Source of the DNA: Oscillospiraceae bacterium
GTDB taxonomy: Bacteria; Bacillota; Clostridia; Oscillospirales; CAG-272
Assembly (NCBI GenBank): GCA_015065075.1
Contig: SVRA01000002.1
Span: forward strand, 1 to 63,777
Direction of reading: 5' to 3'
Length of the DNA stretch: 63,777 nucleotides
Part shown: positions 2,936-61,853 of the stretch, in pieces
How the letters are laid out: every line of letters starts with the position of its first letter
Position numbering within the stretch: position 1 is the first letter of the stretch
The notes under the pieces: generated by a model
Databases searched by the model: none
The model's input: only the letters and a program-made list of their open reading frames with translations
Told to the model about the DNA's origin: nothing
Made by a program: the position numbers and the translations under genes

Positions 2936-3015
2936 TACGGTTTTTACACATTGACCTGTCAAAGCTTGAACCTCGACGTTGTCGAAAACGATGGGATCAG
3001 GGCGCAATTTATCTA

Positions 3016-3044
3016 TTGACAAATCTTATTCAATGTTATATAAT
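3016..3044 (+). promoter_or_regulatory. sigma-A consensus promoter
   Basis: Perfect TTGACA-N17-TATAAT (3016-3021 / 3039-3044) upstream of the HPr-like gene. Confidence 0.55.
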
Positions 3045-44506: not shown

Positions 44507-47476
44507 ATGAAAAAGAGAATTTTGGCTATAGTTTTGGCATGCCTTATGATTTTTTCTGTTGTTTCGTTCGTAGCTTGTGACGATGCAACCGAAGAGCATG
44601 CAGAAAAGATAGCTACATTGGAGACTGCAACCGATGCGCTTAAGGCGGCAATTGAGACCAAGGCAAGTGCAAGCGATCTCAATAAGGCTGTTGCAGATTT
44701 CACCGCTGAGCTTGAAAAAGCTGCAGCAAAGGGCGACGTAGAGGCAGTTCAGGCTGCTCTTGCCGCAGTAGAAACCACCGCAAAGAACGCTCTTGATAAG
44801 GCGGGTGCAAATGCAACCGCGATCGAAGCGCTGAACGCTGCCGTAGCAGAAATCGAGGCAGCTCTTGAAGCAGCTGAGTCCTCTGTTGGTGCAGGCGTAG
44901 CAGATCTCGAAGCAGCAATCGCAGATCTGGGCACAGCAATCACAGAGATCCAGGAAACCATTGCGCTTCTCGCTACCAAGGCAGAGCTCGAGGAAGCAAC
45001 CAAGGCTCTTCAGGAAGCAATCGACACCAACTCGAAGGACATCAAGGATGCTGTTGAGAAGTTTGATGCAGCAATCAAGGCGGCTGGAGAAGACACCGAG
45101 GCAGTTAAAGAAGCTCTCGCAGCTGTAAAGGCAACCGCAGATGATGCTCTCGCAAAGGTAACCGCTCTCGGCGATATCGAGGAGCTTCTCGAAACCGTTG
45201 CTACTTTGAAGGAACTCGACATCGTTGATGTCGAAGGCCTTGAGGATGCTCTTAAGGGCTATATCAGCATTACTGATTGGGATAAGGCATCGGCAAAGAT
45301 TCACGATTATTTGAAGACTCTTAATGAAGAGTACAGCAAATATGAAGCTACCAAGAACTACTATACCGAAGAGGCATGGGACGATATCGAACTCGAGTAT
45401 GATTATGCAATACTTTGCCTCAATAGAGCTTATAGCGTAGAAAATCTCGGTACAATTGTTGAAAACTTCAAGACTGCAGCTGCAGACGTTAAGCTTATCA
45501 TAGAGCAGATCGCAGAGAAGCTTAATAACGTTGATACCGCTACTCTTGGAACTCTTAAGGCACACTACGAGGCACAGAACGGCAAGTCCCTTCTTGATGA
45601 AGGCGTGGATGCTCTTATCGCAACTGCAGATGAGAATCTCGCCGCTCTGTACAATGAGTATATGACAGAGTATACCGCAGGACATCTTCCCCTTGAAGGT
45701 GACGGTAGTGAGATCACCGCTCAGGTTGGAACCACATATCAGGGCTATGTAGATGCTCTTGACGCATACAAGGATCGTAAGGCAGCTCTTGAGACTGCTG
45801 AGGAAGAGGCAAATGAGATCAATGCACTTATAGTAGAATATGCTGCATTTGCCGACGATGAGGACGATGAGATCAACAACCCCAATACTACGGCTCTCAA
45901 TGCTCTTAAGGACAGAATCGCTGCTTGGGATGAAACATATTTCGCTGATTTCGCTAATGACACCGTAAACTACGGGCTGGTTCATCATGCTGAGTTCGAT
46001 ACGCTTTATAATGCTTATTGGCATCTTGGCGTTGATGCAGCAGGATTGTTGGCAGAATTCGCAGAGTCCCTCAACTTTGAAGTTACCCTTCTTTCTAAGC
46101 CCGCGCTTGATAACTCCTTGGAGCTTTACAATGCATACACCGATAAGTGTGAGGCAGACGGAACATCCCTTGACTATGAGTATAATGATCACAACGGTGC
46201 ATACTATCTTGTACAGTTGCTCAATATGACAACCGAATACAATACTCTCGTTGAAGAAGCTCAGGCAGCTTATGACGAAGTATATGAGAACATTACTGTT
46301 GACAACGTAACCATTTACGACATGGCTGCTATCGAAGCTATGCTTGCTTGGTATGATGTTGAAGAGTACGGCTTGGTTGACAACTTCGCAACTGAGGTTA
46401 AGGTAACCGGAACTGAAAACTATGTTACCAAGGCAACCCGCGACGATCTTCTTGAAGTAAAGGCAGCTTGCCAAGCTCTCGTAGATGCTAAGAATGAGCA
46501 GACCAATGCTGTAAATGCACTTCTCGCAGCTCTTCCCACCGCAGGTGCTGTTGGTGGTAACTCCGTAGATGGATTCATTGATCCCGCTTGCGCAGAGTGT
46601 GCAGAGGCAGGATGCGAAGCTTGCAACTTCCTTGGATACAACTTCACCGGCAACGAGATCAAGCTCTCCGACAAGGAAGCAATTGAAAACGCAAGAGAAG
46701 CTTACGATGCATGGCTCAATGGAACCAGCGATCAGGATAAGATCAACCTTGATTCTGAGCTCTTCGTAATAGATGCAGAAGCTTATGTAAACCTTGAAAG
46801 AGCTGAGCATTATATGCTTAACTGGCTGGAAAGCTTGCTGAGAGACACTGTTTACGCTGTTAAGGATCTTGACGGAACCAATCCCGACGAGGATGCGTAT
46901 GCAGGTGCTATCTGGCTCCGCGATATGCTTGTAGCCGCAAACTGTGGCGACACCACTTGCCTTACTGGCGTCTATACTCCCGATGGAGAAGAACCTTTTG
47001 AGTATGATGTTCCTGCAACCCTTGCAGCTTACGAGCTTGCCGTTTATAAGCTCGAAAAGCTCGAAGAAGTTGAGGATCTCTATGAGGCAATGAAGGCAGA
47101 TCTCGAGTCTGTTGAGCTTTCTACAACTGAGTTCACTGCTTCTTACACCACTCTTTGTGGACTTATTAATGCAGGCGAAAATATGGCAGCTGTAGATTCT
47201 CTCATCACTGCTTGGAAGACTGAAGGCGCATACAAGAACGCAGAGGATGCTTACATGCTTGCTGTTGCTAAGAATGAAGCAAAGGCAACCGTTGAGGGAT
47301 CCTATAACGATAAGGTAGCAGAATACGAGGCAGCAGGAAAAGACGCTGATACGCTCGCTAACTTTGAAAATCTCTACAAGCTTACTTGCAACGAGATCGA
47401 CAATGCTACCAGCGTAGAGGCAGTTAGCACCGTTGTAACTCGTTGGAATAACGAGCGCGTTAACTTGTTTGATTGA
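44507..47476 (+). CDS. 989-aa Ala/Glu-rich coiled-coil surface lipoprotein, function unknown
   Basis: Signal peptide with lipobox FVA|C24 and a long A/E/K/D/T/L-rich, helix-favouring sequence. A strong GAGGAG RBS lies upstream. Confidence 0.8.
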   Translation: MKKRILAIVLACLMIFSVVSFVACDDATEEHAEKIATLETATDALKAAIETKASASDLNKAVADFTAELEKAAAKGDVEAVQAALAAVETTAKNALDKAGANATAIEALNAAVAEIEAALEAAESSVGAGVADLEAAIADLGTAITEIQETIALLATKAELEEATKALQEAIDTNSKDIKDAVEKFDAAIKAAGEDTEAVKEALAAVKATADDALAKVTALGDIEELLETVATLKELDIVDVEGLEDALKGYISITDWDKASAKIHDYLKTLNEEYSKYEATKNYYTEEAWDDIELEYDYAILCLNRAYSVENLGTIVENFKTAAADVKLIIEQIAEKLNNVDTATLGTLKAHYEAQNGKSLLDEGVDALIATADENLAALYNEYMTEYTAGHLPLEGDGSEITAQVGTTYQGYVDALDAYKDRKAALETAEEEANEINALIVEYAAFADDEDDEINNPNTTALNALKDRIAAWDETYFADFANDTVNYGLVHHAEFDTLYNAYWHLGVDAAGLLAEFAESLNFEVTLLSKPALDNSLELYNAYTDKCEADGTSLDYEYNDHNGAYYLVQLLNMTTEYNTLVEEAQAAYDEVYENITVDNVTIYDMAAIEAMLAWYDVEEYGLVDNFATEVKVTGTENYVTKATRDDLLEVKAACQALVDAKNEQTNAVNALLAALPTAGAVGGNSVDGFIDPACAECAEAGCEACNFLGYNFTGNEIKLSDKEAIENAREAYDAWLNGTSDQDKINLDSELFVIDAEAYVNLERAEHYMLNWLESLLRDTVYAVKDLDGTNPDEDAYAGAIWLRDMLVAANCGDTTCLTGVYTPDGEEPFEYDVPATLAAYELAVYKLEKLEEVEDLYEAMKADLESVELSTTEFTASYTTLCGLINAGENMAAVDSLITAWKTEGAYKNAEDAYMLAVAKNEAKATVEGSYNDKVAEYEAAGKDADTLANFENLYKLTCNEIDNATSVEAVSTVVTRWNNERVNLFD

Positions 47477-47510
47477 TTCTGACTTTTGATCAAAGAAAAG
47501 TTATAATTTA

Positions 47511-47550
47511 AAAACGTCCCCTCCCGAAATTTCGGGAGGGGACATTTTTT
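47511..47550 (+). terminator. rho-independent terminator
   Basis: GTCCCCTCCCGAAA/TTTCGGGAGGGGAC perfect 14-bp stem followed by ATTTTTT. Confidence 0.85.
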
Positions 47551-47947
47551 GCTTGAAACGAAGTCACAGACAGCTGCAAAAGCTTTAGTTCTTGCCTTTG
47601 TGCTAACAATTCGGGTCGGTTTTTGTTGATCGTTAAATAAAAACGGCCTTGAGCATCATTCTCAAAGTCGCTTTTTGTTTATTTTAGATCGTTTGATTTG
47701 AATTTCTAAAATTGAGAAGACAAATCTATCAAATTTTAATTTTAACGTGTTGGTAAATTCAACTTAGCAAGGTTTGCGGTGTTTGCAATTGCTATCTGAG
47801 TCGTTTAAGGATCAAGAACCAGCTCTTGGCTATATTTACGTTGATTTGTCTGTGCCAACGCAATTCAATGCTTTTTCATATTTTAAATAACGAAATTAGC
47901 TTCTGTATACTAGATTAGGAAACACTTCCCTTGATCGACACTCCCTA

Positions 47948-47976
47948 TTGACAAAATCGAATTTATATGATATAAT
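47948..47976 (+). promoter_or_regulatory. sigma-A consensus promoter for the giant gene
   Basis: Perfect TTGACA-N17-TATAAT, ~140 nt upstream of the ATG at 48118. Confidence 0.6.
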
Positions 47977-48117: not shown

Positions 48118-51100
48118 ATGATGAAAAATATATCAAGGAGACTCGTAGCTGTCGTTATATGCGTGGTGCTTGCCTTGGTGTTGGCGATCTGCTTTGCTTC
48201 GTGCAAAAACAAGCCGAACAAGGATGAAGAGACCTCGGCTACCACACAGGTTGGGGGAGATATCATACCCGGCGAAGACGATACCACACCCGGCGGTGAC
48301 GATACCACACCCGGCGGTGATGATACCACACCCGGTGGTGATGATACCACACCCGGTGGTGATGATACCACACCCGGTGGTGATGATACCACACCCGGTG
48401 GCGAAGATACTACCGAGGAGACCACCTCGGATCACGAGCATATTTATGACGAGGGAACGGTTACACTTGAGCCCACGTGTGCAAACGAGGGAAAGAAGGT
48501 ATACGTTTGCTCGGTATGTCAGCGTGAAAAGACCGAAGCTATCCCGCGTCTTGAGCACGATATGGGAGAGTGGGAGCAGATTATTGCCCCCGAGCTAAAC
48601 AAGGAGGGTCTTGAGCGCAGGGAGTGCAAGAATTGCGATCATTTTGAGGAGCGCGCGATAGAAATGCTTCCTGCTAAATGGTACATAACTGTTAATGACG
48701 GCTTTGGCGGCACTTCCACTGTCAGAGTAGGAGAGAATGGAGTATATTCTCTGACTACTCCCGTCCGTGTCGGATACAATTTTATCGGCTGGAAGGACTC
48801 CAACGGTAAAGATTTCGCGGCGTCGGGAACGATAAGCTCCGACGTCACTGTTACTGCGATTTGGGAGCTTGACGCTACCGAAACGATCGAGGAGCTCGTC
48901 GAGCGCGCGGCTGCGGGCGTTGATCTGATCTACATAGCGAACGATATCGTTATAGATAGACCTATTTACGTGCCTTCTACCACGAAAATATACTCGGATA
49001 AGCCCGTAAAGCTTATAAGAGACAAGGAATATCTCGGAGACCTGTTCGTTATCGGTCAGAACGCCGAGGGCGAGAACTCTATTCTTATGAACCTTGTTCC
49101 TATGCTTATTCTCGGTAGTGAGGACTATACCGGAGATACGGTAATGCTCACCATTGACGGAAACCGCGATGGAATGAAGGATGGAACGGAGGTCGTTGGA
49201 ACTGCACTCATCTTGCTCAACGGAGCACGAGTCAATATGTATAACGGAGTGTCTATCTCTAACCACCAAAAGCTTGGTAACGAGAGAACGCTAATTCTTA
49301 ACAAGTACTTGGTCGGCTCGGCAACCTATGCAGGTGGCTCGGCGGTAATGATCAGCTCGGGCTCGTCCTTCTATATGTACGGCGGAATTATGGATAATAA
49401 CTCCGCGCGCATAGATAGTGTAGTGCTTGAAGACGGTACGTCGTCTAACCTTTCAGGGTATGGCGGAGCAGTTTATAATAACGGAACCTTCCGTATGTAC
49501 GGCGGAGCAATAACGAATTGCTCAGCAAACCGCGGCGGCGCTATATATTCCGATGCAATATTGGAGATCACGGGCGGCGTTCTTGAAGGTAACTACGCAA
49601 AGAACAAGGGTGGAGCTATCTGTAGCTCGGGCTCTGACGCAAGTGATATGTTCATTGGCGTAAAGGGTGCTGAAATTGGAACTGTGGTTATCAAGAACAA
49701 CAGCGCAGGAACTCAGGGTGGAGCAATTCTCTCCTATGCGGATAGTCCCCTGATACTTTTTGGCGGCGTTCTTTTTGAGAGCAACTCTGCTCTCGGAAAC
49801 AACGGCGGCGCGATCTCGACGTCCGGTCCTATAACCTCATACGGAAATAGCTTTGTTGGAAACAAAGCTAAATATAGCGGCGGAGCGATATATCAGTCCT
49901 ATTCAAGCTCCGAGCTTATCGTTCGTATCGTTGAGCTTCACGATACCGTATTTGAAGGAAACTCGGCAAATAAGGGTGGCGCAATTACTCTTACGTCTTC
50001 TTCGGGTACAGACGTTGGAGCTTACGGCAAGCTTGTAAATTGTAAATTTATCAATAACAGTGCGCTTCATTATCTGTCCACCAAGACTGATAGCGAAACC
50101 GGAGAAGTCAAGACCTCTGTCAACGGAGGAAACGGCGGAGCAGTTTATTCTTCTCAGCACAGTAATTTTGATATCGAGGGCTGTGAGTTTGTAGGAAACA
50201 AGTCCGAGAACCTCGGCGGCGGCGCTATCGGCGCTACTGTATCCAGTACTATAAACATCAAGGATTGTTTGTTTGAAAACAATGCTTCCGTAGACGCAGA
50301 CGGCGACGAAAACGGCAAGTCCGGTGTCGGCGGTGCTATCTACGCTTATAATGGAACAGCGTTAACTGTCAGCAATACTAAATTTATCGGAAACAGTGCT
50401 AACAAGAACGGCGGAGCGCTCTATCTGTCTGACAACAAAGTACAGCTTACAGATATAGAGCTTGTCAAAAACTCTGCGGGACTTAACGGCGGAGCTATTG
50501 CTCACTATTCGAACAACGTTCTTGATATCAAGGGCGTTTATGCCGTTGGAAATACCGCAAACGGCAGTGGCGGCGTTGTATATAACAGCAGGGCAACCTT
50601 GAATTTGATCTCCGATGAGAATACTGAAAACGTATTCGGTGCACTCGGAGCAGACGACGCCGAAAGCACAGAGCTTGCCAATACGGCAGCAAACGGCGGT
50701 GCTCTCTGCGGCGGAAACAATTCGATATTTAGTATCAACGGTGCAGTTTTTGAAAATAATGCGGCTGTTGCTACCGAGATACAGGTAAACAATGAGGAAA
50801 CCGGAGAACCGTACATAGATTACGAGGACGGAAGCGGTGGAGCTGTTTACGCTTCTTACAACACAGTTCTCGATTTCCAAAATGTGAGATTTTCTTCCAA
50901 CAGTGCTAAAAACGGCGGAGCTATCTTTGCAAATAAAGATGCTTCTATGTTGTTTGATACTTTGACGTTTGAGGACAACACCGCAAACGCAAAGGAGTTT
51001 GACAAAGATGCCAGAGGCGGTGCTATCTATATGATAGACGTAACGCTTACGGCAAATAATATTGAGTTTAAGGGCAATCATGCGGATTATTACGGCGGAG

Positions 51101-54100
51101 CTATAGACGCGCATACGGGCTCAAAGGCCACGATAAATAACGTAAGCTTCGTTGGAAACAGTGCGCTCAATAACGGCGGAGCTCTGTGGCTGTATACTAA
51201 TACCGAATTTGATATCACGGGAATATACGCCTCGGGCAATCAAAGCAATTCTTCTGGTGGATTTGTATACACAAGAGGAACGCTGAACATCCGTGACGGC
51301 GGAGATATTTCCAATGTTTTTGAGGGTGTTGCCGCAGATGCGGATAGCATCAATAATGCAAAAGGCGGTGGAGCGATCTATTGCGGAGCAAGCTCCTCTG
51401 TCAGTGTTGAAAAAGCAGAATTTAAGAACCTCAGCGCATCCAACGGCGGCGCAATATATGTTACGGGTGAATTGACTGCAACCGACTGTAATTTCTCGAA
51501 CAATGACGCCGCAAACGGTGGAGCGGTCTATATAGAAAGAACCGCCTACCTTGCAAACTGTACCTTTACAAATAATACAGCAAACGCCAAAGGAGGAGCT
51601 GTTTACGTTGCTTATGATGCAGACTATAAGAATGAGCTCAAGGCAACGGTAGAAAACTCCAAATTCGTTTCCAACAATGCGACCGAGGGCGGAACAAACG
51701 AAGAAAGACGCGGCGGAGCTATTTATATCGGAGAGTATTGCATAGTTAACGTGTCGGGATCCGAATTTGAGGATAATCACGCAACTCAGTATGGCGGAGC
51801 CATCAGTGCTGCAAGAGGAGCGGAGCTTAATATCAGCAGCTCTAAGATCAAGGGAAGCAGTGCTAAAAACGGCGGAGCTATCTGGCTTTATGCAGGAACA
51901 ACTCTTAATATCTCGGATAGTGAGCTTTCAAATAATGCAGCTCAAAAAGAGGGCGGAGCTCTGTATTCCTATAATACTATCAATGCTTCGGGCACTATGT
52001 TCACCGAAAACACCGCAAATGTCGGTGGTGCTATAACGGTAGCAAGCGGAACGACCACAACTGTTGGTTGTGCCTTTGACTCCAATAAGGCGACGAGCGG
52101 CGGTGCAGTCTATGTTTCAAACGGAGTTTATTTCGATGGAACCGAGGGTGTTTCCGAGAGCGGATCTGCCTTTACTGCTAACTCCGCAAGCTACAGAGGC
52201 GGTGCAGTCTATATCGTTAATGCAGATGAGCAGACAGGAGAAAATAAGGCGGTCTTCAATTACTCGGTATTCAAGTCCAATACTGCAACCGAGGGCGGAG
52301 AAGACGCAAAACGCCGCGGCGGAGCGATCTCTATTGCAGAGTACGTCACGGTAACCGTAAATAATTCTCTGTTCCATGAAAACGCAGCGACCCAGTATGG
52401 AGGAGCCGTTAACGTAGCAAGAGGTTCCGTACTCTACGTAAACGATTCCGAGTTCTATAAGAACACTGCTAATTATAACGGCGGCGCTATCTGGCTGTAT
52501 TCTGGTACTACACTTGAGCTTTCGGGTGGTGAGTTTAACGAAAACGCTGTAAACACTAATGGCGGAGCATTGTATTCTTATAGCACGGTAACCGTTTCAA
52601 ATGCGAAGTTTAATAAGAACGCCGCGGAAAACGGCGGAGCTATCTGTGTTGCAGGAGGAGAGACTGCTATCTCCGAGTGCGCGTTTGATTCTAATACAGC
52701 AACGCTTGGCGGAGCCGTATACGTCGGAGAAGGAGCAAGCTTCCTTGACGGCATTGATACGAGTGACATTGTAAAGACCGGATCCGTATATAACGGCAAT
52801 ACCGCGGAATACGGCGGAGCGATCTATCTTGCAGCTGTAGAGGATCCCGAGAAAACACCTGACAGAGAGGCGGCTAAGGCAACTCTTGAGGAAAGCGAAT
52901 TTACTGGAAACACGGGAACAAAATACGGCGGAGCAATATATGCAAGCGCAGGTGTTGCTTTAAATACCGACAGCGTAAGCTTTAATGACAACAGCGCGTC
53001 CAACGGCGGCGCTATAAGCGTAGCAAGCAGCAGCTGTGTATACGTTGATAACGGCTCGCAGTTTGTCGGAAACGTTGCTACCGATGGCGAGGGCGGAGCT
53101 ATTCATTCTAAGGGCTCGCTTGAACTGACGAGCTCCAAGTTTATTGGAAACAAGACCGAAGCGGAGAGCAAGCGAGGCGGAGCGATATATCTTACTTCGG
53201 GATATATCAATGCCGAGGGAGTTATCTTTGAAAACAACTATGCCGCAAATAACGGCGGAGCAATAGTTATGACAAGTGCTCAAAGTGCAAGCTTCGATAA
53301 TTGTACTTTTGAGAACAACGTTTCGGGCTACAGAGGCGGTGCGATCTATATTACCGGTACCACCGACGTAAAGACTACGGCTTGTAAGTTCGAAGGAAAC
53401 GAAGCAGTCAACCGTGGCGGAGCGGTATATCTTACCACCTCAGGCGGATTTGTTGACGGTGAAATCTCTGTTGCAGATAGTAATTCTACGTTTATTGGCA
53501 ATAAATCTCTCGTTGGCGGTGCTATCTTTGTTGACAAAACCGCAACGCTTAACGGAACCGTCTTTGAAAATAACACGGCGGCTTCGGCAGAATCGGGAAC
53601 GAGCGCAAACGGCGGAGCAATCGCGGGCGAATACGGAACGGTAACGCTCAATGGAGTAAGCATCAACCGCAATACTGCGGATAATGGTGGAGCTATCTTT
53701 GATGGCAAGCGCCTTGCACTTGTTATTAACGGAGCAAATATTACCGAAAACAGTAGCGGTATCGTGATCTCGGGCGGCTCTGTCTCGGTAAGCGGAAATG
53801 TTATAATTAAAGATAATACCTCTTATGACGTATCCCTTTCGGAAGGCAAGCTTATAACGGTTGCAGACGTACTTGATCAGACATCAAGGATCGGATTTAG
53901 CGCGGTTGGTAACATTGGAGAGTTCGTAACAGCAGACGGATCAAACGTTACTGACGTTACACAGTATGCTGACATATTCTTCAACAACGACGGATATCCC
54001 GTATTCGTTAATAGCGAAGGAAAGCTTGTTTACGGATTCGTGATCTTTGAACAGCCCGTGCGCATGAACGGATATACCGTAATCACGTCGGGACAGCCCA

Positions 54101-57100
54101 CCTCGTACACCTGGTACACGTGGGTAGACGGTGCGAAGGGCGAGATCGTAGAGGGTCAGACCACGGCTACCCTTACAGGCGGAATGGCAGGTCAAAGCTA
54201 CGTATGTGTTATTGCGCTTGGCGACAAGACGGTTGAGACCCTGCCCGTTACCGTCAAGGCGGAGATCCCTTCCCAGAATCATTCTATCTGCGGAAGCATA
54301 TGCGATTGCACGGATACGACCCACGAAGAGCTCGTATGGAATGCAGTATCCGATCTTGGTGAGCTTATCTACGCCGCAGCCAAAGGAGGAAACTACTATC
54401 TTACCGAAGACATCATTGTCGATGCAACGGTTAAGATAACCGCAAACGTAAATCTCTGCCTTAACGGTAAAAAGATTTCTCGTGCAGGCGATGAAGCGTT
54501 CAGAATGCTTGAGGTCGCGGCAGGAGTGACTCTTACTCTTACCGACTGTACGAGTGAGGAACGTGTGGGATATATCGATTCTACCACGGGGCTGTGGACC
54601 GAGGGTGTATATTCGGGAGAGGAAACAGTAACCGAATACAAGCTTTACGGCGGCCTTATCACAAATGGCACGGGTGCAGGCGGTGCCGCAATATATCTTG
54701 ACGGCGGAACGCTTAACGCCTATGGAATAAACTTCGCGGGCAATACTACCGCAAATAGCGGAAGCGCGGTATGTGGAAGCGGAACTTATAATGATGTAGG
54801 ATCTGTCTTCGTAGGAAATGCTGCAAGCGGTCAGGCGGGTGCCGTACAGATCGACGGAGATATTACCCTTAAATACACGCAATTTATAAGCAATAAGTCT
54901 ACAGGCAACCGAGCAGGAGCACTTTTGATCACGGTCGGTAGAGCAAATGCATACGGAGTAGTCTTTAAGAACAACATTGCAAGCACAAACGGCGGTGCGG
55001 TCGTTGTTACGGGCGCAGAGATCTGCATTTTTGATAACTGTACCTTTGAAGGAAACGTTTCGGGTGGCAGAGCAGGTGCAATATATGCGCATAAGACGGA
55101 ACTCATAACCACGCTGTCTTGCACGTTTACTGATAACGAGGGTGTAGACGGCGGTGCTATCTACAACACGAGTACGGCTGCATACGTTGACGGATCCGTA
55201 GATGATAAGACGAAGGGCTCGACCTTTACCGCTAATAGCGCGACAAACGGCGGAGCAGTATATACTGCCGGCTCGGTGATCCTTTACGGAACAAAATTCG
55301 AAGGCAATTCCTCGACAAGCGGCGGCGCAATCTACGTTAACGGTAAGCTTGAAACTAACGATTGCCTCTTTAACGGAAATGAAGCATATTACAGAGGCGG
55401 AGCGGTATATATCGTTGCCGATGATGCGCAGACAGGAGAGAATAAGGCAGTCTTTAACAATTCTACCTTCACCTCGAACAGAGCTACCGCGGGAGGAACC
55501 GACGAAAAGAGAAGAGGCGGTGCTATCTACGTAGCAGAGAAGGTCACGGTAGCAGTAAACGGCTGTACCTTTACCGATAACGCGGCAACACAGTACGGCG
55601 GCGCGATCGACGTTGCAAACACCTCGATTCTTAACGTGACCGAGTCCGATTTCATAGGAAACAGTGCTCAGAACGGCGGAGCTATCTGGCTCTATTCCAA
55701 CACGGTGCTCAGCGTTTCGGGCGGTGAATTCAAGGACAACGTTGCTTCCTCTTACGGCGGCGCGATCTATTCCTATAATACCGTGACTGTAACCGATGTG
55801 ACCTTTACAGGTAACGTTGCAGCTGCGGGCGGAGCACTCTATGTTGCAGGCGGAGCGACCTCTACGAAGAATTGTACCTTCAGCGGCAACACCGCAACAA
55901 CAGGCGGAGCAGTATGCGTCGCAAAGGGATCGTATACCGACGGCGAGCTTGTTCTTGACGGCGAAACCGTAATCGACACTGCCAACGGTTCTGAATTTAT
56001 AGGTAATATTGCAGAAAACGGAGGCGCTATCTACGTATCGGGCGGTACTGCAAACGCGTACGGATCTACCTTTACCGAAAACTCGGCCAAGGTAGACGTA
56101 GCGGAAACTACCGATTCTGAAAGCGGCGCGGCTACATCCGTTAAGACCTATCTTGGCAACGGCGGAGCAATATACGTTGCGAGCGGTGCTGCTTATAATG
56201 ACAGAAACGCAAGCTACAACGGCAACATCGCAGCTCTCGGCGGAGCGATCTATACTGTGGGAGGAACTGTCAATTCGACAGACAGCACCTTCACAGAAAA
56301 CGCGGCTATTACAAGTGAAACTACAGTGACTGCGAACGAGACGACCGAAACCACCGTGGTTTACGGCAAGGGCGGAGCTGTCTATGTTGCAGAGAACGGC
56401 GTATTCAACTACACTGCAACAGAGAAGCTTACCTTTACGAACGGCGTTGCAAATGATTACACAGGACCTAAATTTGATGGCAACCTTGCGGCAAACGGCG
56501 CGGCGATCTATATTGCGTCGGCAGAGACTGAGGGCGCATCTGCGGGAACGGCAACTGCTATCGGCGCGACAATCATGAATCATAATGCCACCGGTAACGG
56601 CGGAGCAATTTATGCAAACGGTGTATTGAACACCGAGGGATCGGTTATATATAAGAACTCGACCCAGGGTAATGGCGGAGCGATATACGCAAATAAGCCC
56701 TACACTGACAACGGCTCTCTCTTTGTGGAGAATACAGCAAGCGGTGAGGGAGGTGCGATTCGTGCAGGAACTAACGTCACCATTGAGAATACCAAGTTTA
56801 TCCGTAATAAGTCTACGGGCAACCGTGCAGGAGCGCTTTTGGTAACAAGTGGTTCGTTGAATGCAAAGAAAGTAACCTTTGAATATAACGACGCTTACAA
56901 GGCGGGTGGCGCAGTTGTGTTAACTGCTGCTAAGGCATCTGTATTTGAAGAATGTATCTTCAATAATAATATCGATCAAACCTATAGAGGCGGTGCTATC
57001 TATATGCACAATTCCGAGCTTGTTACTACTTTGTCCTGTACATTTACAGGTAATAGTGGCAAATACGGTGGTGCGATCTACGGAACAAACTCTGCTACCT

Positions 57101-58311
57101 ATACCGACGGAAGCGCGGATGGTAACTACGGATCTGCATTTACAGGAAACACCTCTCAGACCGCAGGCGGCGCGATCTATATTCTCGGCGAATGTCATCT
57201 TTACGGCACCACTTTCAATAATAATACCGCAACAACCAACGGCGGCGCGATCTACACAAGTACTACTAATACGATCAGCAACGCTACGTTTAACCAGAAC
57301 GGTGCCGTTCTGGGCGGAGCGATCTACGTTGCCGGCGGGGCAACCTCGACAAAGGATTGTTCCTTCAGCGGCAACACCGCAACAAACGGCGGCGCAGTAT
57401 ACGTAGCAAAGGGAACGTATACCGACGGCGAGGCGATCCTTACCGGCGAGAGCGTAACAGGTGCAGAGAACGGTTCTACGTTCAGCAACAACAGTTCTAC
57501 CGGAACCGAGCTTGGCGGCGGAGCGATCTATACCGCAACCGGTGCCGTGCTTCAGGGTTCCAAGTTTGAGAATAACATCTCGGCGCTTAACGGCGGTGCG
57601 GTATACTCAACAGGTGATCTGACAACTTATTATGCAAATTTCACTAAAAATGAGACTGTGGGCAGTGGCGGAGCGATATACATTATCGGAGATGCCGAGC
57701 TTGTTGTTGTAGGCGGTACTATGAAGGAAAACAAGACCGGAAGCTCAAAGAGTGGCGGAGCGATCGCAGCCTTTGAAAATGAAAGTAAGGCAAGCCCCAC
57801 TTGTTACATCAGTGGAACTACATTTAACGGCAACTCCTCGTATAGTGGTGGAGCGATATGCCTCCGCAATACGGGCACCACAAAAACCGAGCACGTACTT
57901 GAAAACATAACGCTGACTAATAACAACGGCGGAAACGGTACTGTTTACATTTATAACAACACTAAGGTTACGGTAAGCGGACTGGTTGCAACAAACAACA
58001 CTGCAAGCCAAAGAGGTTCGGTATTCTACGTTACCTCGTCTAATGCCCCCTCACTTATTCTTAAGGATGCACAAGTGTCCGGAAACGTTGTTAAATCTGC
58101 AATTGATATAATTCATATTGCAAATAAGTCAGCGGTTGTTGACGTGTATATGGATAAAATAAGCGGAGATGACTTTATTGCGGCGGGTATTACCGATACT
58201 ACCAATATTGCCGCAGCAGGTTGGGATAAGCTTATAAACAATGCAAGCAACGGAACAGTTACAGGATACACCACTCCCGTCGATTACGGGAGCGGCGTAT
58301 CCGCAGAATAA
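48118..58311 (+). CDS. 3,397-aa surface lipoprotein made of Pmp-type (GGAI / FxxN) parallel beta-helix repeats
   Basis: AGGAGG RBS, signal peptide and lipobox FAS|C29. Then follow a 7x GGDDTTP linker, a Cys cluster, a Listeria-Bacteroides repeat (GYNFIGWKDSNGKDF) and dozens of GGA[IVL]Y...N..A units. Confidence 0.85.
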   Translation: MMKNISRRLVAVVICVVLALVLAICFASCKNKPNKDEETSATTQVGGDIIPGEDDTTPGGDDTTPGGDDTTPGGDDTTPGGDDTTPGGDDTTPGGEDTTEETTSDHEHIYDEGTVTLEPTCANEGKKVYVCSVCQREKTEAIPRLEHDMGEWEQIIAPELNKEGLERRECKNCDHFEERAIEMLPAKWYITVNDGFGGTSTVRVGENGVYSLTTPVRVGYNFIGWKDSNGKDFAASGTISSDVTVTAIWELDATETIEELVERAAAGVDLIYIANDIVIDRPIYVPSTTKIYSDKPVKLIRDKEYLGDLFVIGQNAEGENSILMNLVPMLILGSEDYTGDTVMLTIDGNRDGMKDGTEVVGTALILLNGARVNMYNGVSISNHQKLGNERTLILNKYLVGSATYAGGSAVMISSGSSFYMYGGIMDNNSARIDSVVLEDGTSSNLSGYGGAVYNNGTFRMYGGAITNCSANRGGAIYSDAILEITGGVLEGNYAKNKGGAICSSGSDASDMFIGVKGAEIGTVVIKNNSAGTQGGAILSYADSPLILFGGVLFESNSALGNNGGAISTSGPITSYGNSFVGNKAKYSGGAIYQSYSSSELIVRIVELHDTVFEGNSANKGGAITLTSSSGTDVGAYGKLVNCKFINNSALHYLSTKTDSETGEVKTSVNGGNGGAVYSSQHSNFDIEGCEFVGNKSENLGGGAIGATVSSTINIKDCLFENNASVDADGDENGKSGVGGAIYAYNGTALTVSNTKFIGNSANKNGGALYLSDNKVQLTDIELVKNSAGLNGGAIAHYSNNVLDIKGVYAVGNTANGSGGVVYNSRATLNLISDENTENVFGALGADDAESTELANTAANGGALCGGNNSIFSINGAVFENNAAVATEIQVNNEETGEPYIDYEDGSGGAVYASYNTVLDFQNVRFSSNSAKNGGAIFANKDASMLFDTLTFEDNTANAKEFDKDARGGAIYMIDVTLTANNIEFKGNHADYYGGAIDAHTGSKATINNVSFVGNSALNNGGALWLYTNTEFDITGIYASGNQSNSSGGFVYTRGTLNIRDGGDISNVFEGVAADADSINNAKGGGAIYCGASSSVSVEKAEFKNLSASNGGAIYVTGELTATDCNFSNNDAANGGAVYIERTAYLANCTFTNNTANAKGGAVYVAYDADYKNELKATVENSKFVSNNATEGGTNEERRGGAIYIGEYCIVNVSGSEFEDNHATQYGGAISAARGAELNISSSKIKGSSAKNGGAIWLYAGTTLNISDSELSNNAAQKEGGALYSYNTINASGTMFTENTANVGGAITVASGTTTTVGCAFDSNKATSGGAVYVSNGVYFDGTEGVSESGSAFTANSASYRGGAVYIVNADEQTGENKAVFNYSVFKSNTATEGGEDAKRRGGAISIAEYVTVTVNNSLFHENAATQYGGAVNVARGSVLYVNDSEFYKNTANYNGGAIWLYSGTTLELSGGEFNENAVNTNGGALYSYSTVTVSNAKFNKNAAENGGAICVAGGETAISECAFDSNTATLGGAVYVGEGASFLDGIDTSDIVKTGSVYNGNTAEYGGAIYLAAVEDPEKTPDREAAKATLEESEFTGNTGTKYGGAIYASAGVALNTDSVSFNDNSASNGGAISVASSSCVYVDNGSQFVGNVATDGEGGAIHSKGSLELTSSKFIGNKTEAESKRGGAIYLTSGYINAEGVIFENNYAANNGGAIVMTSAQSASFDNCTFENNVSGYRGGAIYITGTTDVKTTACKFEGNEAVNRGGAVYLTTSGGFVDGEISVADSNSTFIGNKSLVGGAIFVDKTATLNGTVFENNTAASAESGTSANGGAIAGEYGTVTLNGVSINRNTADNGGAIFDGKRLALVINGANITENSSGIVISGGSVSVSGNVIIKDNTSYDVSLSEGKLITVADVLDQTSRIGFSAVGNIGEFVTADGSNVTDVTQYADIFFNNDGYPVFVNSEGKLVYGFVIFEQPVRMNGYTVITSGQPTSYTWYTWVDGAKGEIVEGQTTATLTGGMAGQSYVCVIALGDKTVETLPVTVKAEIPSQNHSICGSICDCTDTTHEELVWNAVSDLGELIYAAAKGGNYYLTEDIIVDATVKITANVNLCLNGKKISRAGDEAFRMLEVAAGVTLTLTDCTSEERVGYIDSTTGLWTEGVYSGEETVTEYKLYGGLITNGTGAGGAAIYLDGGTLNAYGINFAGNTTANSGSAVCGSGTYNDVGSVFVGNAASGQAGAVQIDGDITLKYTQFISNKSTGNRAGALLITVGRANAYGVVFKNNIASTNGGAVVVTGAEICIFDNCTFEGNVSGGRAGAIYAHKTELITTLSCTFTDNEGVDGGAIYNTSTAAYVDGSVDDKTKGSTFTANSATNGGAVYTAGSVILYGTKFEGNSSTSGGAIYVNGKLETNDCLFNGNEAYYRGGAVYIVADDAQTGENKAVFNNSTFTSNRATAGGTDEKRRGGAIYVAEKVTVAVNGCTFTDNAATQYGGAIDVANTSILNVTESDFIGNSAQNGGAIWLYSNTVLSVSGGEFKDNVASSYGGAIYSYNTVTVTDVTFTGNVAAAGGALYVAGGATSTKNCTFSGNTATTGGAVCVAKGSYTDGELVLDGETVIDTANGSEFIGNIAENGGAIYVSGGTANAYGSTFTENSAKVDVAETTDSESGAATSVKTYLGNGGAIYVASGAAYNDRNASYNGNIAALGGAIYTVGGTVNSTDSTFTENAAITSETTVTANETTETTVVYGKGGAVYVAENGVFNYTATEKLTFTNGVANDYTGPKFDGNLAANGAAIYIASAETEGASAGTATAIGATIMNHNATGNGGAIYANGVLNTEGSVIYKNSTQGNGGAIYANKPYTDNGSLFVENTASGEGGAIRAGTNVTIENTKFIRNKSTGNRAGALLVTSGSLNAKKVTFEYNDAYKAGGAVVLTAAKASVFEECIFNNNIDQTYRGGAIYMHNSELVTTLSCTFTGNSGKYGGAIYGTNSATYTDGSADGNYGSAFTGNTSQTAGGAIYILGECHLYGTTFNNNTATTNGGAIYTSTTNTISNATFNQNGAVLGGAIYVAGGATSTKDCSFSGNTATNGGAVYVAKGTYTDGEAILTGESVTGAENGSTFSNNSSTGTELGGGAIYTATGAVLQGSKFENNISALNGGAVYSTGDLTTYYANFTKNETVGSGGAIYIIGDAELVVVGGTMKENKTGSSKSGGAIAAFENESKASPTCYISGTTFNGNSSYSGGAICLRNTGTTKTEHVLENITLTNNNGGNGTVYIYNNTKVTVSGLVATNNTASQRGSVFYVTSSNAPSLILKDAQVSGNVVKSAIDIIHIANKSAVVDVYMDKISGDDFIAAGITDTTNIAAAGWDKLINNASNGTVTGYTTPVDYGSGVSAE
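48268..48414 (+). repeat. in-frame 21-bp tandem repeat x7 (PGG[DE]DTT)
   Basis: CCCGGYGGTGAYGATACCACA units are read directly from the DNA. Confidence 0.95.
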
Positions 58312-58332: not shown

Positions 58333-61300
58333 ATGAAATCAACCAAAAGAATTGTATGTATCATATTGGCGATCGCAACGCTTTTGGGAGCAGTTGGCAT
58401 CGGTGCTGCGATATTCTTTGTGAAGGATGACGTAGACCCGATCAAGCCCTTGGAAGAGATACCTTATTCCGAGTCCATGACTCCCAGTGTAACGCCTACC
58501 GGCACCTCCTTCTTTGAAGATACTTTCTTGGAAGTCGATCCTGAAAAGGGGGAGCATATCAACATAACGTACGACGAGTTTCCCCGAACTCAGAATACCT
58601 CCAATCTCTTAAGCCAGGGAACTGCGGTTTTTGAGATAGACGGCAAGACCGTTATGGCGGATGCGTATTACAGAGTTAAGGACGAAGCCCTTAACGACCC
58701 TAACGCAGGCCTTGGAATCCTTTTGTATCAGAGTATTCTCTATAAGATAGCAAATCCCGAGGCGGAGATGCGCATTTGCTTCACCTCGTACCGCATCTCT
58801 CCCACTGCGGCCGTATGTGTGCTCCCTCAGAGCCGATATTACGGATATATGCGCTCTCTTTACGGCAACGGTAACGATTACGACCAAAACGGATTTGTTC
58901 GTATCATTTATATGCTTGTTGAAGCGGCAAAAATGGGAATTGACGTTACTGTCATAGGTCAGCTCAATTCCTATGCCGTAAAGCAGTATAATAGCAAGGG
59001 AGAGCTTAAAAAGGTCGCGGAAGCGTCTTATGCACAGTATCTGAACAACGCTCTTTCTCAGGATTGCTACGACAAGTACGCCGATGGCAAAAAGGTATCC
59101 GATTTTATGACCTTCCGAGAGGTTGAATGGACACTTGAGGATAAGGGCGGTACCGATATGATGCATCTGAAGTCTCTTACCACCTCTAATTATCTTGACA
59201 GAGACGGCGTAGCTCATGAAAACGCAGTATTTTTCTCCAGTGCCAATATGGATGCTATCGACTATAAGGGATGTAACGGTAATAACGGCTCTCAGTCGGG
59301 CGTTACCATAACCGGACATAAGGAGATATATAATGCTACCGTCAACTATATAGATCTTATGGCGGAGTATTATGAGCAGGAGAAGCTTTATGAGCTCAGA
59401 TATCTCCTTCAAAAGAGAAATACCGAGCAGGCGGAGCTTATAGGTGCAGGAAGAGAAAACGAGATCCCCGACGAAGAGCAGATAACCTGGCTTGGAAGTG
59501 AGGGCGATAAGGTCTTTAAGCTTTATTTCTCTTGTCTGGGTGGCGATTACGATGCATGGAATACGGTAACCAATCCCTATTGTGAGCAGGTTCAAAATCT
59601 TTATGACTCTGCGATAAATTACCCCGACGAATATAGAGTGTTCACTTGGAACTGTGCTTCCTATACCCGAAGCTTCAACGTATCGCAGATCATGGACGAA
59701 ATGGTCAACAGAGCGTTTATTGATTATCCCCATCCCGACAATCGCCTCAGCATTATGGCGAAGGAATATGAGTATGACGAGCTCAGTGAGCTGAAGGTTG
59801 GGACCGATATAGGATTTTTGAAGCTTAAGAATAAGAGCACGGGAATGCACTCGAAGGACTTGATGTTCTCTTACGTCAAGGACGGCGAAAGAAAGTACGT
59901 TTCACTCCTTTCTTCATGCAATTTCCATTCCGGTGCGCTCTATTACCAGACAAACTCTATGCTTACCATTACCGAAACCGACGAAACGGGAGACACTTTC
60001 TATAAAGCTCTCGGAATCGCATCCACGGCGGGATGTATAGTTGAAGAGGGAAAGACCTTTTCTACCGATGAAAGACTTGCAGTGTCCAAGGAGTTTGGAA
60101 CGCTGCCCCAAACAGTTGAGGCGGTATTTGAGCTTAACGAGAATGCCGCTAAAGAGGATGAAAGCTACGGTATGCTTTTGAGTAACCACGATTACTGGCA
60201 TTCTCAGCTTTCCGTTGAGGTAGCAGCAGGGGGAAATCCTCAGGTGACCTTTTGGATAAACGAAAGCGTTCCTGACGAAACCAGCGTGCACGGCGACAAA
60301 ATGAAGTGCACCAAATTGGTCTTTCTTTTCGACAAAGTAGACGTAAGATCTTATAAAGAAACAAGATTGACCATTGTCCACGACAGAGAAAAGGCAGAGG
60401 TCCGTTGTTACGTTAACGGAGAGCTTAAGCAGACGCTTACTCAAGAAAGTATAATGACCAAAGCCCAGATCAAAGAAGGGGTTTCTCCCATAACTGATTT
60501 TGAAACGACTCGAAAATTCGTCGTAGGCGGAAGCTGGATGGGAAGCAACGGTCAGTGTTTTAAAGGCGTTCTCAAGGAACTTAACGTGTGGGCAGACGTG
60601 AGAAGCACGGAAGAGATAGCCGCTGAGGCAGGCACTGAGCTTGCAGGCGACGAGGATCTTCTCGTGGCGTATAACTTCAGAAAGAATGACAAAAATTCTA
60701 TTAAAGATCTTTCTGCCAACAAAAACGATCTTAAAACCGAGGTTCTTTGGCAAGATGTGTCAGAGGTAGAGGACGTTGGTGATTTTGCTTACTCCTTCGC
60801 TATCGTGGGAGATATTCAGGAGCTTTCCGAGGATTATTTTAACGACCACTATTTTAGCGACAAGGGCAAAGATGCCGACGGCAATAAAAACGGTAAGGAT
60901 CCTTACGACGATGAGTACGTTGACGAGGATACCGATCCGCTCGATAATAAGCCCGAACATGTAAAGGCACTTATCGATTGGCTTCTTGAAAACAAAGAGG
61001 AGCACAAGATCGAGTATGTGATGACTCTTGGAGATCTTACTCAAAAGAGCTACACTGCAGAATGGGACTACGTGAGATCTCAGTTCTATAGACTTGACGG
61101 TATTGTTCCGTTCTCTCTTGCGCGCGGAAATCACGATAAGGTCGAGCCCCAGATCAAAACTAAGGACGAAAACAATCAAACCGTGTGGCCCGACGAGCTT
61201 CGTCAAAACGCCTTGTTCTATAAGGCATTTGACGATGAAACGTATCGAGGACAGATAGACGGATGCTTGAACGAATGGGATATTGCCAATACTTATAAGG

Positions 61301-61806
61301 CCTTTACCGTTGCCGACACGAAGTATCTTCTTGTTTGCCTTGACTACGGGCCTTCCGACGAAGCGCTCGAGTGGGCAGGCGAGATCATTGAGGCACACAA
61401 GGATCACAGAGTAATAATCACAACTCATACGTATCTTTTCAGAGATGGAACCCTCTTTGATAAGGATGATGCATATCCCGCATCAAGATCACAGGGCGGT
61501 GTAAACGACGGTGTTGATATGTGGGAAAAGCTTGTCAAGAAATATGAGAACATTGTTCTCGTTATTTCGGGTCACGATCCCAGCGACCATATCGTATGTA
61601 CTAGAACAGAGGGAGATAACGGCAACGTAGTAACGCAGCTTCTTGTTAATCCTCAGCATATGGATTCAAGTCTGCCGTATTGCACCAATATGGTTGCAAT
61701 GCTTTATTTCTCTGAGGACGGCAAAACCGTCACCGTTCGATACTATTCAATAATGAATAACAGATACGGAAGCGTCCAAAGCCAATTTTCATTCGATATA
61801 GAATAA
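58333..61806 (+). CDS. membrane-anchored multidomain protein: PLD-like (2 degenerate HKD motifs) + LamG/ConA-like + calcineurin-like metallophosphoesterase
   Basis: N-terminal TM anchor. HLK...SSAN (~59164) and HSK...SSCN (~59848); a LamG-type end FKGVLKELNVWADVRSTEEI; and MPP motifs VGDIQ, GDLTQ, GNHD, THTY, SGHD. It starts 21 nt after the giant ORF stop. Confidence 0.7.
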   Translation: MKSTKRIVCIILAIATLLGAVGIGAAIFFVKDDVDPIKPLEEIPYSESMTPSVTPTGTSFFEDTFLEVDPEKGEHINITYDEFPRTQNTSNLLSQGTAVFEIDGKTVMADAYYRVKDEALNDPNAGLGILLYQSILYKIANPEAEMRICFTSYRISPTAAVCVLPQSRYYGYMRSLYGNGNDYDQNGFVRIIYMLVEAAKMGIDVTVIGQLNSYAVKQYNSKGELKKVAEASYAQYLNNALSQDCYDKYADGKKVSDFMTFREVEWTLEDKGGTDMMHLKSLTTSNYLDRDGVAHENAVFFSSANMDAIDYKGCNGNNGSQSGVTITGHKEIYNATVNYIDLMAEYYEQEKLYELRYLLQKRNTEQAELIGAGRENEIPDEEQITWLGSEGDKVFKLYFSCLGGDYDAWNTVTNPYCEQVQNLYDSAINYPDEYRVFTWNCASYTRSFNVSQIMDEMVNRAFIDYPHPDNRLSIMAKEYEYDELSELKVGTDIGFLKLKNKSTGMHSKDLMFSYVKDGERKYVSLLSSCNFHSGALYYQTNSMLTITETDETGDTFYKALGIASTAGCIVEEGKTFSTDERLAVSKEFGTLPQTVEAVFELNENAAKEDESYGMLLSNHDYWHSQLSVEVAAGGNPQVTFWINESVPDETSVHGDKMKCTKLVFLFDKVDVRSYKETRLTIVHDREKAEVRCYVNGELKQTLTQESIMTKAQIKEGVSPITDFETTRKFVVGGSWMGSNGQCFKGVLKELNVWADVRSTEEIAAEAGTELAGDEDLLVAYNFRKNDKNSIKDLSANKNDLKTEVLWQDVSEVEDVGDFAYSFAIVGDIQELSEDYFNDHYFSDKGKDADGNKNGKDPYDDEYVDEDTDPLDNKPEHVKALIDWLLENKEEHKIEYVMTLGDLTQKSYTAEWDYVRSQFYRLDGIVPFSLARGNHDKVEPQIKTKDENNQTVWPDELRQNALFYKAFDDETYRGQIDGCLNEWDIANTYKAFTVADTKYLLVCLDYGPSDEALEWAGEIIEAHKDHRVIITTHTYLFRDGTLFDKDDAYPASRSQGGVNDGVDMWEKLVKKYENIVLVISGHDPSDHIVCTRTEGDNGNVVTQLLVNPQHMDSSLPYCTNMVAMLYFSEDGKTVTVRYYSIMNNRYGSVQSQFSFDIE

Positions 61807-61814
61807 TAAATTTT

Positions 61815-61853
61815 GAGTCCACCTCATCTAAGTGAGGTGGACTCGTGCTTTTT
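61815..61853 (+). terminator. rho-independent terminator
   Basis: GAGTCCACCTCA-TCTAA-GTGAGGTGGACTC, followed by GTGCTTTTT. Confidence 0.8.

Follow-up and report, generated by a model that had tools for sequence, protein, structure and literature searches.

Repeats of the chlamydial polymorphic membrane protein (Pmp) type are found well beyond the chlamydiae: less than one third of the UniProt matches to the Pfam family PF02415 are chlamydial (PMC11166332), and members of the family are known from over 100 species outside that group, among them Methanobrevibacter, an organism lacking an outer membrane (PMC10715098). In gut methanogens, adhesin-like proteins (ALPs) combine an N-terminal membrane anchor with a right-handed beta-helix and immunoglobulin (Ig)-like domains (PMC11532034). 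Here, we describe a giant protein with Pmp-type repeats from an Oscillospiraceae bacterium (Bacillota; Clostridia; Oscillospirales; CAG-272), encoded on contig SVRA01000002.1 of assembly GCA_015065075.1. This entire contig of 63,777 nucleotides, hereafter the window, belongs to a metagenome-assembled genome (MAG) of 1.84 Mb in 126 contigs that is 75% complete. The guts of humans and herbivores harbour uncultured Oscillospirales-type Clostridia in abundance, and to our knowledge almost nothing is known about the attachment of these bacteria to particles, mucus or partner microbes. Our searches of the literature on Pmp repeats in Firmicutes, or on their occurrence with dockerins, returned nothing.

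We propose that the giant is probably an N-terminally lipid-tethered, adhesin-like surface fibre that works together with a co-transcribed, membrane-tethered phosphoesterase. Below, we describe the protein, its partner gene and its relatives, and then weigh this reading against its alternatives.

Architecture of the giant protein

The gene and the parts of its product, given in amino acids (aa) of the protein, are as follows.

47948..47976, forward strand: sigma-70 promoter TTGACA-17-TATAAT with an extended -10 TG, 12 of 12 consensus matches
48118..58311, forward strand: giant open reading frame (ORF), 3,397 codons in one open frame
48118..48204, forward strand: predicted lipoprotein signal peptide with n-region KNISRR, h-region at aa 9-25 and lipobox F-A-S-C29
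48205..48432, forward strand: flexible linker of about 75 residues (aa 30-105), acidic and rich in Thr, Pro and Gly
48433..48675, forward strand: two copies of a Cys/His mini-module of about 40 aa (aa 106-186)
48676..48870, forward strand: Listeria-Bacteroides domain (InlB B-repeat/Flg_new), aa 187-251
48871..54057, forward strand: beta-helix 1, aa 252-1980, an N-cap and 47 GGA[IVL]/FxxN rungs
51421..52626, forward strand: two adjacent super-repeats of about 200 aa, aa 1102-1300 and aa 1295-1503, 45% identical to each other
54070..54273, forward strand: Ig-like beta-sandwich hinge between the helices, aa ~1985-2052
54280..54324, forward strand: second head, H2055-x2-C2058-G-x2-C2062-x-C2064-x4-H2069, ahead of the cap helix of helix 2
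54325..58137, forward strand: beta-helix 2, aa 2070-3340, 30 GGA rungs
55237-55821, forward strand: third super-repeat copy within helix 2, aa 2374-2568
58138..58311, forward strand: C-terminal tail (…ISGDDFIAAGITD…W…LINNASNGTVTGYTTP…) of 57 aa, soluble and hydrophilic, and the stop codon

Most of the giant consists of Pmp-type repeats. It matched PF02415 (Chlam_PMP) with 335 bits (E-value 5e-106, cut-off 20.6), TIGR01376 with 238.6 bits (cut-off 15) and PF13229 (Beta_helix) with 98.6 bits over eight stretches. We counted 77 GG[AG][ILVMF] units in two arrays, 47 at aa 449-1857 and 30 at aa 2292-3244, with a modal spacing of 24-29 aa. An FxxN motif stands 8-9 residues ahead of the GGA in 44 of these 77 units, and the rung consensus reads F-x-x-N-x-A-x3-GGA-[IV]-Y. 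Helix 1 is preceded by a conserved N-cap, in which a helix is followed by an invariant TIDGNRD motif.

An AlphaFold model of aa 101-700, based on a 15-sequence alignment, had a predicted local distance difference test score (pLDDT) of 88.2 and a predicted template modelling score (pTM) of 0.79. It runs from two three-stranded mini-domains through the B-repeat domain and a capping helix into a regular beta-solenoid. The model of aa 1860-2339 (10-sequence alignment; pLDDT 89.2, pTM 0.81) places the end of helix 1, the Ig sandwich, the second head, a second cap helix and the start of helix 2 in that order, with the second head as its only low-confidence stretch (pLDDT ~56). All large Foldseek matches to the first model were right-handed beta-helices, including tailspikes, PfbA (4mr0), AlgE4, K1 lyase, rhombotarget A and Hap. 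The second model matched Ig C2-type domains (3bfo, TMt 0.51) and, at the start of helix 2, a PL3 pectate lyase and the L. reuteri SRRP adhesin (5nxk). The solenoid prediction agrees with the profile hidden Markov model (HMM) evidence and with published Pmp models (PMC10715098, PMC11166332), and together these show a right-handed parallel beta-helix fold for the giant. At approximately 26.5 residues and 0.48 nm per rung, helix 1 would have ~60 rungs and a length of ~30 nm, and helix 2 ~48 rungs and ~23 nm.

Both rods contain old, diverged duplications. A BLASTP search of the whole protein against itself gave the identity hit only, and tiles of 200 aa were used in its place. The three super-repeats are 45-55% identical, and a second duplicated pair (aa 2209-2400 and 2847-3039) is 52% identical. 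The best internal DNA matches had identities of 67.6% over 481 nt and 76% over 221 nt, and there are no exact internal repeats of more than 12 residues outside the linker.

The two rods are joined by the Ig-like hinge and the second head. In the alignment of hinge homologues (A3), the second head has invariant H196, C199, G200 and C203 and a nearly invariant H210, and it may be a metal knuckle. The C-terminal tail is shared with the homologues P0010, P0011 and P0013. Pfam and NCBIfam searches assigned no family to the N-cap, the hinge or the tail, and a Pfam and motif scan of the tail region (aa 3240-3397) found no domain, LPxTG motif or hydrophobic stretch.

At its other end, the giant starts with MMKNISRR and a 16-residue hydrophobic core, followed by CFAS-C29 (...LAICFAS-C). 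A hydropathy analysis of the whole protein identified aa 2-33 as its only hydrophobic segment. The N-terminus matches a lipobox pattern that we take to be of the G+LPPv2 type, and fails a strict PROSITE PS51257-type pattern at position -4 only, which is Cys25. The genome of the window encodes both Lgt (PF01790, 230 bits) and LspA (PF01252, 144 bits). Nowhere in the giant is there an LPxTG-like motif ([LIVS]Px[TASG][GNSA]) or a hydrophobic window outside aa 2-33, and a Pfam scan revealed neither a wall-binding domain nor a dockerin. Considering that the lipobox Cys is the sole hydrophobic anchor and that Lgt and LspA are present, we infer that the protein is anchored at its N-terminus. A match to the lipoprotein family PG1828 (E-value 0.004) was rejected because it reflects the signal peptide only. 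The linker behind Cys29 is encoded by a 21-nt tandem repeat (48259-48410; 7.2 copies, 93% matching) that yields approximately seven G[GE]DDTTP units.

Between the linker and helix 1 lie the Cys/His modules and the B-repeat. Unit 1 has the pattern H106/H108...C121-x9-C131-x2-C134 and unit 2 has H147...C170-x2-C173. In the 15-sequence alignment of the head, H47, C70 and C73 are invariant and C31 and C34 nearly so. Each module was modelled as a three-stranded sheet (pLDDT 83-91) and is possibly zinc-ribbon-like, and no Pfam or NCBIfam model matched the cluster. The module consensus is H-x-[YF]-D-x-G-x-V-T-x-x-P-T-C-x3-G-x3-Y-x-C-x2-C-G-x3-T-E-x-I; it may represent an undescribed extracellular metal-binding repeat. 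In giant proteins of the genus, and in metagenomes, tandem copies of the module are very common. Up to 62 module stretches occur in one protein (P0111, 4,548 aa), and further modules are found in many relatives and in the window's own genome (G000, at C13:6874-7104 and C63:8561-8935). The B-repeat scored slightly below the Flg_new gathering score (PF09479: 24.5 bits versus 27, E-value 3e-5) and below the Flg_new_2 cut-off (18.3 versus 23.6 bits). Its structure aligned to that of InlB (2y5p_D) with a Foldseek probability of 1.00, a TMt of 0.72 and a root-mean-square deviation of 2.4 A over 71 columns.

An earlier note on this DNA, made from the letters and their translated ORFs, had anticipated most of this architecture. 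Its single uninterrupted ORF, its lipobox at Cys29, its sevenfold GGDDTTP linker and, by fold, its single Listeria-Bacteroides repeat were all recovered, as were its dozens of Pmp-type units in a right-handed beta-helix and a second head restarting the pattern near 54280. Tiled self-comparison also bore out the three super-repeats and the further pair, and their DNA identity is close to the ~70% from which the note had judged the duplications to be old. Hydropathy, motif and Pfam scans likewise agree with its view that the N-terminal lipid motif is the only tether, with no LPXTG, barrel or wall-binding module. The Cys/His cluster is present and its C-x2-C (C170/C173) was read correctly, but the note gave a spacing of x10 where we find x9, and it described one cluster where there are two copies of a module.

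Partner gene, host and family

The earlier note had considered the gene in isolation. The more informative features turned out to be a conserved partner and a family with swappable tethers. The partner and the end of the transcription unit are located as follows.

58333..61806, forward strand: partner gene of 1,157 aa, with an N-terminal transmembrane anchor, a PLD-like N-domain, a LamG-like domain and a calcineurin-like metallophosphoesterase domain
61814..61845, forward strand: intrinsic terminator ending the two-gene unit, a 14-bp stem followed by a T run

The partner starts 21 nt past the stop codon of the giant, with no terminator between them. In the partner of the window itself, Pfam detected LamG only, with Metallophos and PLDc below their thresholds; its first metallophosphatase motif is GDIQ instead of GDxH, and a sequence search against solved structures returned no match. 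Among its orthologues, Laminin_G_3 and Metallophos exceeded the Pfam thresholds, as did Dockerin_1 in two of them (L045, L046), and the N-domain matched PLDc_2 weakly. All six homologous loci that we examined, in which the identity of the giant's head ranges from 75% to 38%, have a LamG/metallophosphoesterase partner 17-60 nt downstream of the giant. The partners align over their full length at 42-79% identity, and the genes flanking the pair are unrelated among the six loci. One of these loci carries the pair as a tandem duplicate.

Fused partners are 1,094-1,547 aa long and consist of PLD-like, LamG and metallophosphatase parts, with or without a dockerin. In three genomes (L047, G012:C62 and G024:C66) the partner is split, with the LamG-metallophosphatase half upstream of the giant and the PLD-like half downstream. 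This fusion and fission around the giant argues for a functional link. Strong partner matches across 41 genomes were found in exactly the four genomes of the same genus that carry the giant's head, as well as on two fragmentary contigs. Judged by gene content and order, the giant and its partner form a conserved gene pair, newly described here.

Several lines of evidence show that the giant gene is real. An AGGAGG ribosome-binding site lies 7 nt upstream of its ATG, and the leader between promoter and start codon measures about 140 nt. The stretch was found in 13 public metagenome runs, six of which contained at least 95% of the sampled words. In two faecal metagenomes (X1 and X2), a single Logan contig spans 48372-58900 without any difference or gap, and in a third (X3) the main Logan contig spans 48758-58900 and is identical, although these three runs are possibly not independent of the source sample. 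In every public run, the k-mer contigs break at 48330-48401, within the 21-nt linker repeat, into pieces of 37 and 44 nt. Since they break only there, the linker copy number is the one feature of the assembly that is uncertain; the count of approximately seven GGDDTTP units is provisional and may vary among strains.

A 2025 metagenome from another study (X7) contains a strain that is ~98% identical. The 40 differences listed for it (51822-57348) comprise 28 synonymous and 12 non-synonymous changes and no stops, and its sole indel is an in-frame deletion of 3 nt at 55387. The synonymous excess, the lack of stops and the in-frame indel are the signature of a functional coding sequence, a pattern of purifying selection. 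The mature protein has a computed mass of ~345 kDa and an isoelectric point of 4.4. On the opposite strand, antisense open frames of up to 880 aa occur inside the gene (e.g., 53941-56583, reverse strand); these are most likely shadow frames of a repetitive, stop-poor coding strand rich in Gly, Ala and Asn codons.

The giant belongs, by sequence, to a large unnamed and uncharacterised family of proteins from Clostridia gut MAGs. A word-based search with the N-terminal 460 residues identified 53 proteins, of which 33 share aa 101-700 at 33-75% identity; retrieved head-sharing homologues range from 2,040 to 4,595 aa. An HMM search of 1.84 billion cluster representatives found more than 150 representatives of 50%-identity clusters at an E-value below 1e-127, many of them covering the whole head, and a further 5,270 at an E-value of at most 1e-30, which include repeat-only proteins. 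None of the head-family matches among these representatives had an informative name. Scanning reference genomes with the head profile yielded 42 loci from human and animal guts, all in Clostridia MAGs except for one in Anaeroplasmataceae. The taxa include Acutalibacteraceae, Oscillospiraceae, 'Eubacteriales' and 'Clostridia bacterium RGIG6414 Sheep_Rectum'. Only four of the genomes of 24 other species in the genus contain the full head, so the giant gene is accessory.

The family head consists of Cys-motif modules, a B-repeat and a cap, carried by an interchangeable tether. We surveyed the tether in 34 head-sharing proteins (the 33 homologues and the giant itself). A lipobox was found in 11, which include the giant and its closest relatives, several with a canonical L-A-G-C. 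Three close relatives without the lipobox Cys have a transmembrane signal-anchor, and one protein (P0024) has a signal peptide followed by an N-terminal dockerin. Of the other 19, the majority start with a plain signal peptide, in many cases with arrays of Ig-like repeats behind it. The hinge module, composed of helix, Ig domain and head, is kept in 10 homologues. It occurs once in the giant and twice in P0005 and P0031, and is absent from P0011 and P0013. The longest relative, P0005 (4,595 aa; L043:10001-23788), contains an exact internal duplication of 619 aa (starting at aa 1531 and 2826) that includes the whole hinge module. The variable hinge counts and this duplication indicate that the family gains and loses whole blocks, recently in some lineages and anciently in the giant described here. 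The contig of P0005 is also the one with the tandem duplicate of the whole giant and partner pair. Either this expansion is very recent or it arose in the assembly of that record.

Next, we considered the cell envelope of the host. We found no Omp85/BamA in the genome of the window or in any of 40 relatives from the genus and order (22 of high quality), whereas all seven diderm control genomes were positive. Its absence from 41 of 41 genomes indicates that the host is a monoderm, for which an autotransporter route would be impossible; with Lgt and LspA encoded, the lipoprotein pathway is predicted to be working.

Upstream of the giant lies a gene of another kind, followed by its own terminator.

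44507-47476: coiled-coil protein of 989 aa, rich in Ala and Glu, with a lipobox-like N-terminus (…SFVA-C24)
47516-47543: terminator of the coiled-coil gene

We rejected this coiled-coil lipoprotein as a part of the module, as it is absent from all six syntenic loci. A riboswitch or leader RNA in the 5' untranslated region of the giant was likewise rejected: an Rfam scan of the leader found no family above threshold, and the sub-threshold matches fell on the terminator hairpin of the upstream gene. One of these, to PyrG_leader at 47480-47554 (41 bits versus a gathering score of 65), probably arises from the similar shape of the terminator hairpin and not from a true leader.

Proposed mechanism and alternative explanations

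In the reading that we favour, the giant and its partner would be transcribed jointly from their own strong promoter, and the giant would be exported by Sec. Cys29 would probably be diacylglyceryl-modified by Lgt and the precursor cleaved by LspA, so that the N-terminal lipid tethers the protein to the outer face of the cytoplasmic membrane. From the membrane outward would follow the flexible linker, the Cys/His modules, the B-repeat and two rigid rods joined by the Ig hinge. Together, the rods (~50 nm) would be long enough to cross the wall with the C-terminal tip pointing outward, where the giant might bind a glycan or the surface of another cell. The rods would have grown by old duplications of ~200-aa (~7-rung) blocks. 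The fibre and the partner enzyme would most likely constitute an accessory module for adhesion or surface interaction.

Several observations weigh against this reading. The predicted lipidation depends on an atypical lipobox, with F at -3, S at -1 and Cys at -4. In about half of the more distantly related homologues, the plain signal peptide is not accompanied by any evident tether, which means that anchoring is not universal in the family. The N-cap contains invariant polar residues (R301, D308, D347, N349, R350, K385, N388 and R390) that could form a catalytic or ligand site instead of a passive cap. For repeat sequences, AlphaFold2 can predict solenoids with too much confidence (bioRxiv 10.1101/2024.10.30.621056), and the tetrapeptide motifs of chlamydial Pmps are buried and structural, not adhesive (PMC10715098). 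Finally, none of the public RNA runs that we searched contains the stretch.

These N-cap residues, an invariant Arg/Asp/Asn/Lys set, also fit another reading, in which the rod serves a surface enzyme complex as its scaffold for substrate binding or catalysis and the partner cleaves a captured phosphate-containing polymer. Candidate polymers are a teichoic-acid-like or capsular phosphoglycan, a plant or host glycan, and extracellular DNA. The strict conservation of the gene pair, with the partner fused or split, is consistent with such a complex, and glycan lyases, hydrolases, epimerases and tailspike depolymerases predominate among the structural neighbours of the rods. Given Dockerin_1 in homologous partners and the N-terminal dockerin of P0024, dockerin-bearing relatives would plug both proteins into a cellulosome-like scaffold. 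We nevertheless consider this unlikely, though it is the alternative we take most seriously. The Foldseek matches are generic (E-values of 3e-3 or weaker, template modelling scores of 0.2-0.3 over whole models), Pfam and NCBIfam revealed no lyase or hydrolase catalytic motif of any family, no catalytic groove is known for Pmp-type rungs, and the window's partner combines sub-threshold Metallophos and PLDc matches with its deviating GDIQ motif. A bolder version, to which we give only a small chance, is that giant and partner make up a two-part machine on the surface of gut Clostridia, one that is horizontally mobile and has not been described before. Here, the rod would capture a phosphodiester polymer and present it to tethered phosphoesterases, the attachment would be swapped between lipid, transmembrane helix and dockerin according to the host envelope, and the Cys/His base would be a new, widespread metal-binding repeat. 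If this were true, the polymer could come from food particles, host mucus or other microbes.

The atypical lipobox, which failed the strict pattern, would fit shedding, with the giant secreted as a matrix or biofilm component and its N-terminus acting as a normal signal peptide or as a signal-anchor that stays uncleaved. A Sec signal peptide alone is present in many distant members of the family, and three close relatives carry a transmembrane signal-anchor instead. However, the closest relatives keep the Cys in canonical L-A-G-C, M-A-G-C or L-T-G-C boxes, Lgt and LspA are encoded, the long flexible stretch that immediately follows the Cys is what one expects of a tethered lipoprotein, and close relatives without the Cys have another N-terminal membrane tether. 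Shedding therefore seems improbable to us. We regard an assembly artefact or pseudogene, through a chimeric join at the second head or a collapsed repeat, as highly improbable. All assemblies are short-read metagenome assemblies, contigs break in the linker repeat, and the k-mer graph has minor alternative joints, for instance skipping 512 nt and 2,043 nt. Yet the sides of these joints are 20-21 nt long, typical of repeat cross-talk, and the internal copies (45-55% identical as protein, 68-76% as DNA) are too diverged to collapse. The difference-free contigs of X1, X2 and X3, the hinge kept in 10 independently assembled homologues and the X7 variant with its purifying-selection pattern also speak against an artefact. 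Least credible of all, to the point of being scarcely conceivable, is a true chlamydial Pmp autotransporter (type Va) acquired horizontally. The strong PF02415 and TIGR01376 scores would fit it, but Pfam found neither a barrel nor a Pmp middle domain, the C-terminus is the soluble 57-aa tail, Omp85/BamA is lacking in all 41 genomes, and the head loci are Clostridia MAGs bar the one Anaeroplasmataceae. As the relatives are Clostridia MAGs and the barrel is absent, we rejected a transfer from Chlamydia.

Comparison with known systems

The giant has only the repeat in common with chlamydial Pmps, that is, FxxN/GGA[IVL] rungs in a right-handed beta-helix. Its host has no outer membrane or beta-barrel assembly machinery, and the polarity is reversed, with the N-terminus tethered and the C-terminus free. 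It is also two to three times longer, with two rods and an Ig hinge. Pfam detected no autotransporter barrel (PF03797) in the whole protein or in aa 3240-3397, and no Pmp middle domain (PF07548) at an E-value of at most 0.01 for the whole protein or at most 1 for segments. The earlier note implied that a lipid as the only tether is a surprise, Pmp repeats being classically passengers of autotransporters. The absence of a barrel stands, but the surprise is weaker than it seemed, since such repeats are known outside chlamydiae and anchored beta-helix proteins are known in methanogens.

Among monoderms, S. pneumoniae PfbA (4mr0) and L. reuteri SRRP (5nxk/5ny0) are right-handed beta-solenoid surface proteins and were among the best Foldseek matches. 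Unlike the giant, they have a C-terminal LPXTG/sortase anchor, helices of ~300-450 aa and no Pmp motifs, and with 9-11% identity the similarity is at the level of the fold only. Cellulosomal components differ in that the giant has no dockerin; dockerins occur in P0024 and in the partners at L045 and L046. Members of the unnamed family, such as Ruminococcus sp. IJA62_04535 (P0029) and Clostridia bacterium RGIG6414, share the head with TIDGNRD at 33-75% identity, the Pmp rungs and the downstream partner, and differ in having zero, one or two hinge modules and a varying tether.

The family plan can thus be defined as a tether, a linker, Cys modules, a B-repeat and beta-helical 'beads' joined by Ig hinges. 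The work shows the Pmp repeat to be a general unit for building rods, one that functions without an autotransporter. The link of the rod to a conserved phosphoesterase partner provides a concrete experimental handle. Among the new leads, we rate this enzyme partner and the un-annotated Cys/His repeat as the most useful.

The closest functional analogues are the methanogen ALPs of M. smithii and Methanosphaera stadtmanae (PMC11532034), a likeness of architecture that leaves common ancestry aside. Like the giant, these surface proteins are very long and rich in Asn and Thr, come from gut organisms that lack an outer membrane, and combine an N-terminal membrane anchor with one or more right-handed beta-helix domains and Ig-like domains. 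Some of them score for Chlam_PMP, and they are presumed to mediate cell-cell or surface adhesion. In contrast to the giant, they are archaeal, are anchored by a transmembrane helix rather than a lipobox and carry arrays of archaeal Big domains, with neither a Cys-motif/B-repeat head nor a conserved phosphoesterase partner described. Because similar architectures are known in gut methanogens, the giant overturns no current view; it would place a comparable fibre, with an enzyme partner, on the surface of gut Clostridia.

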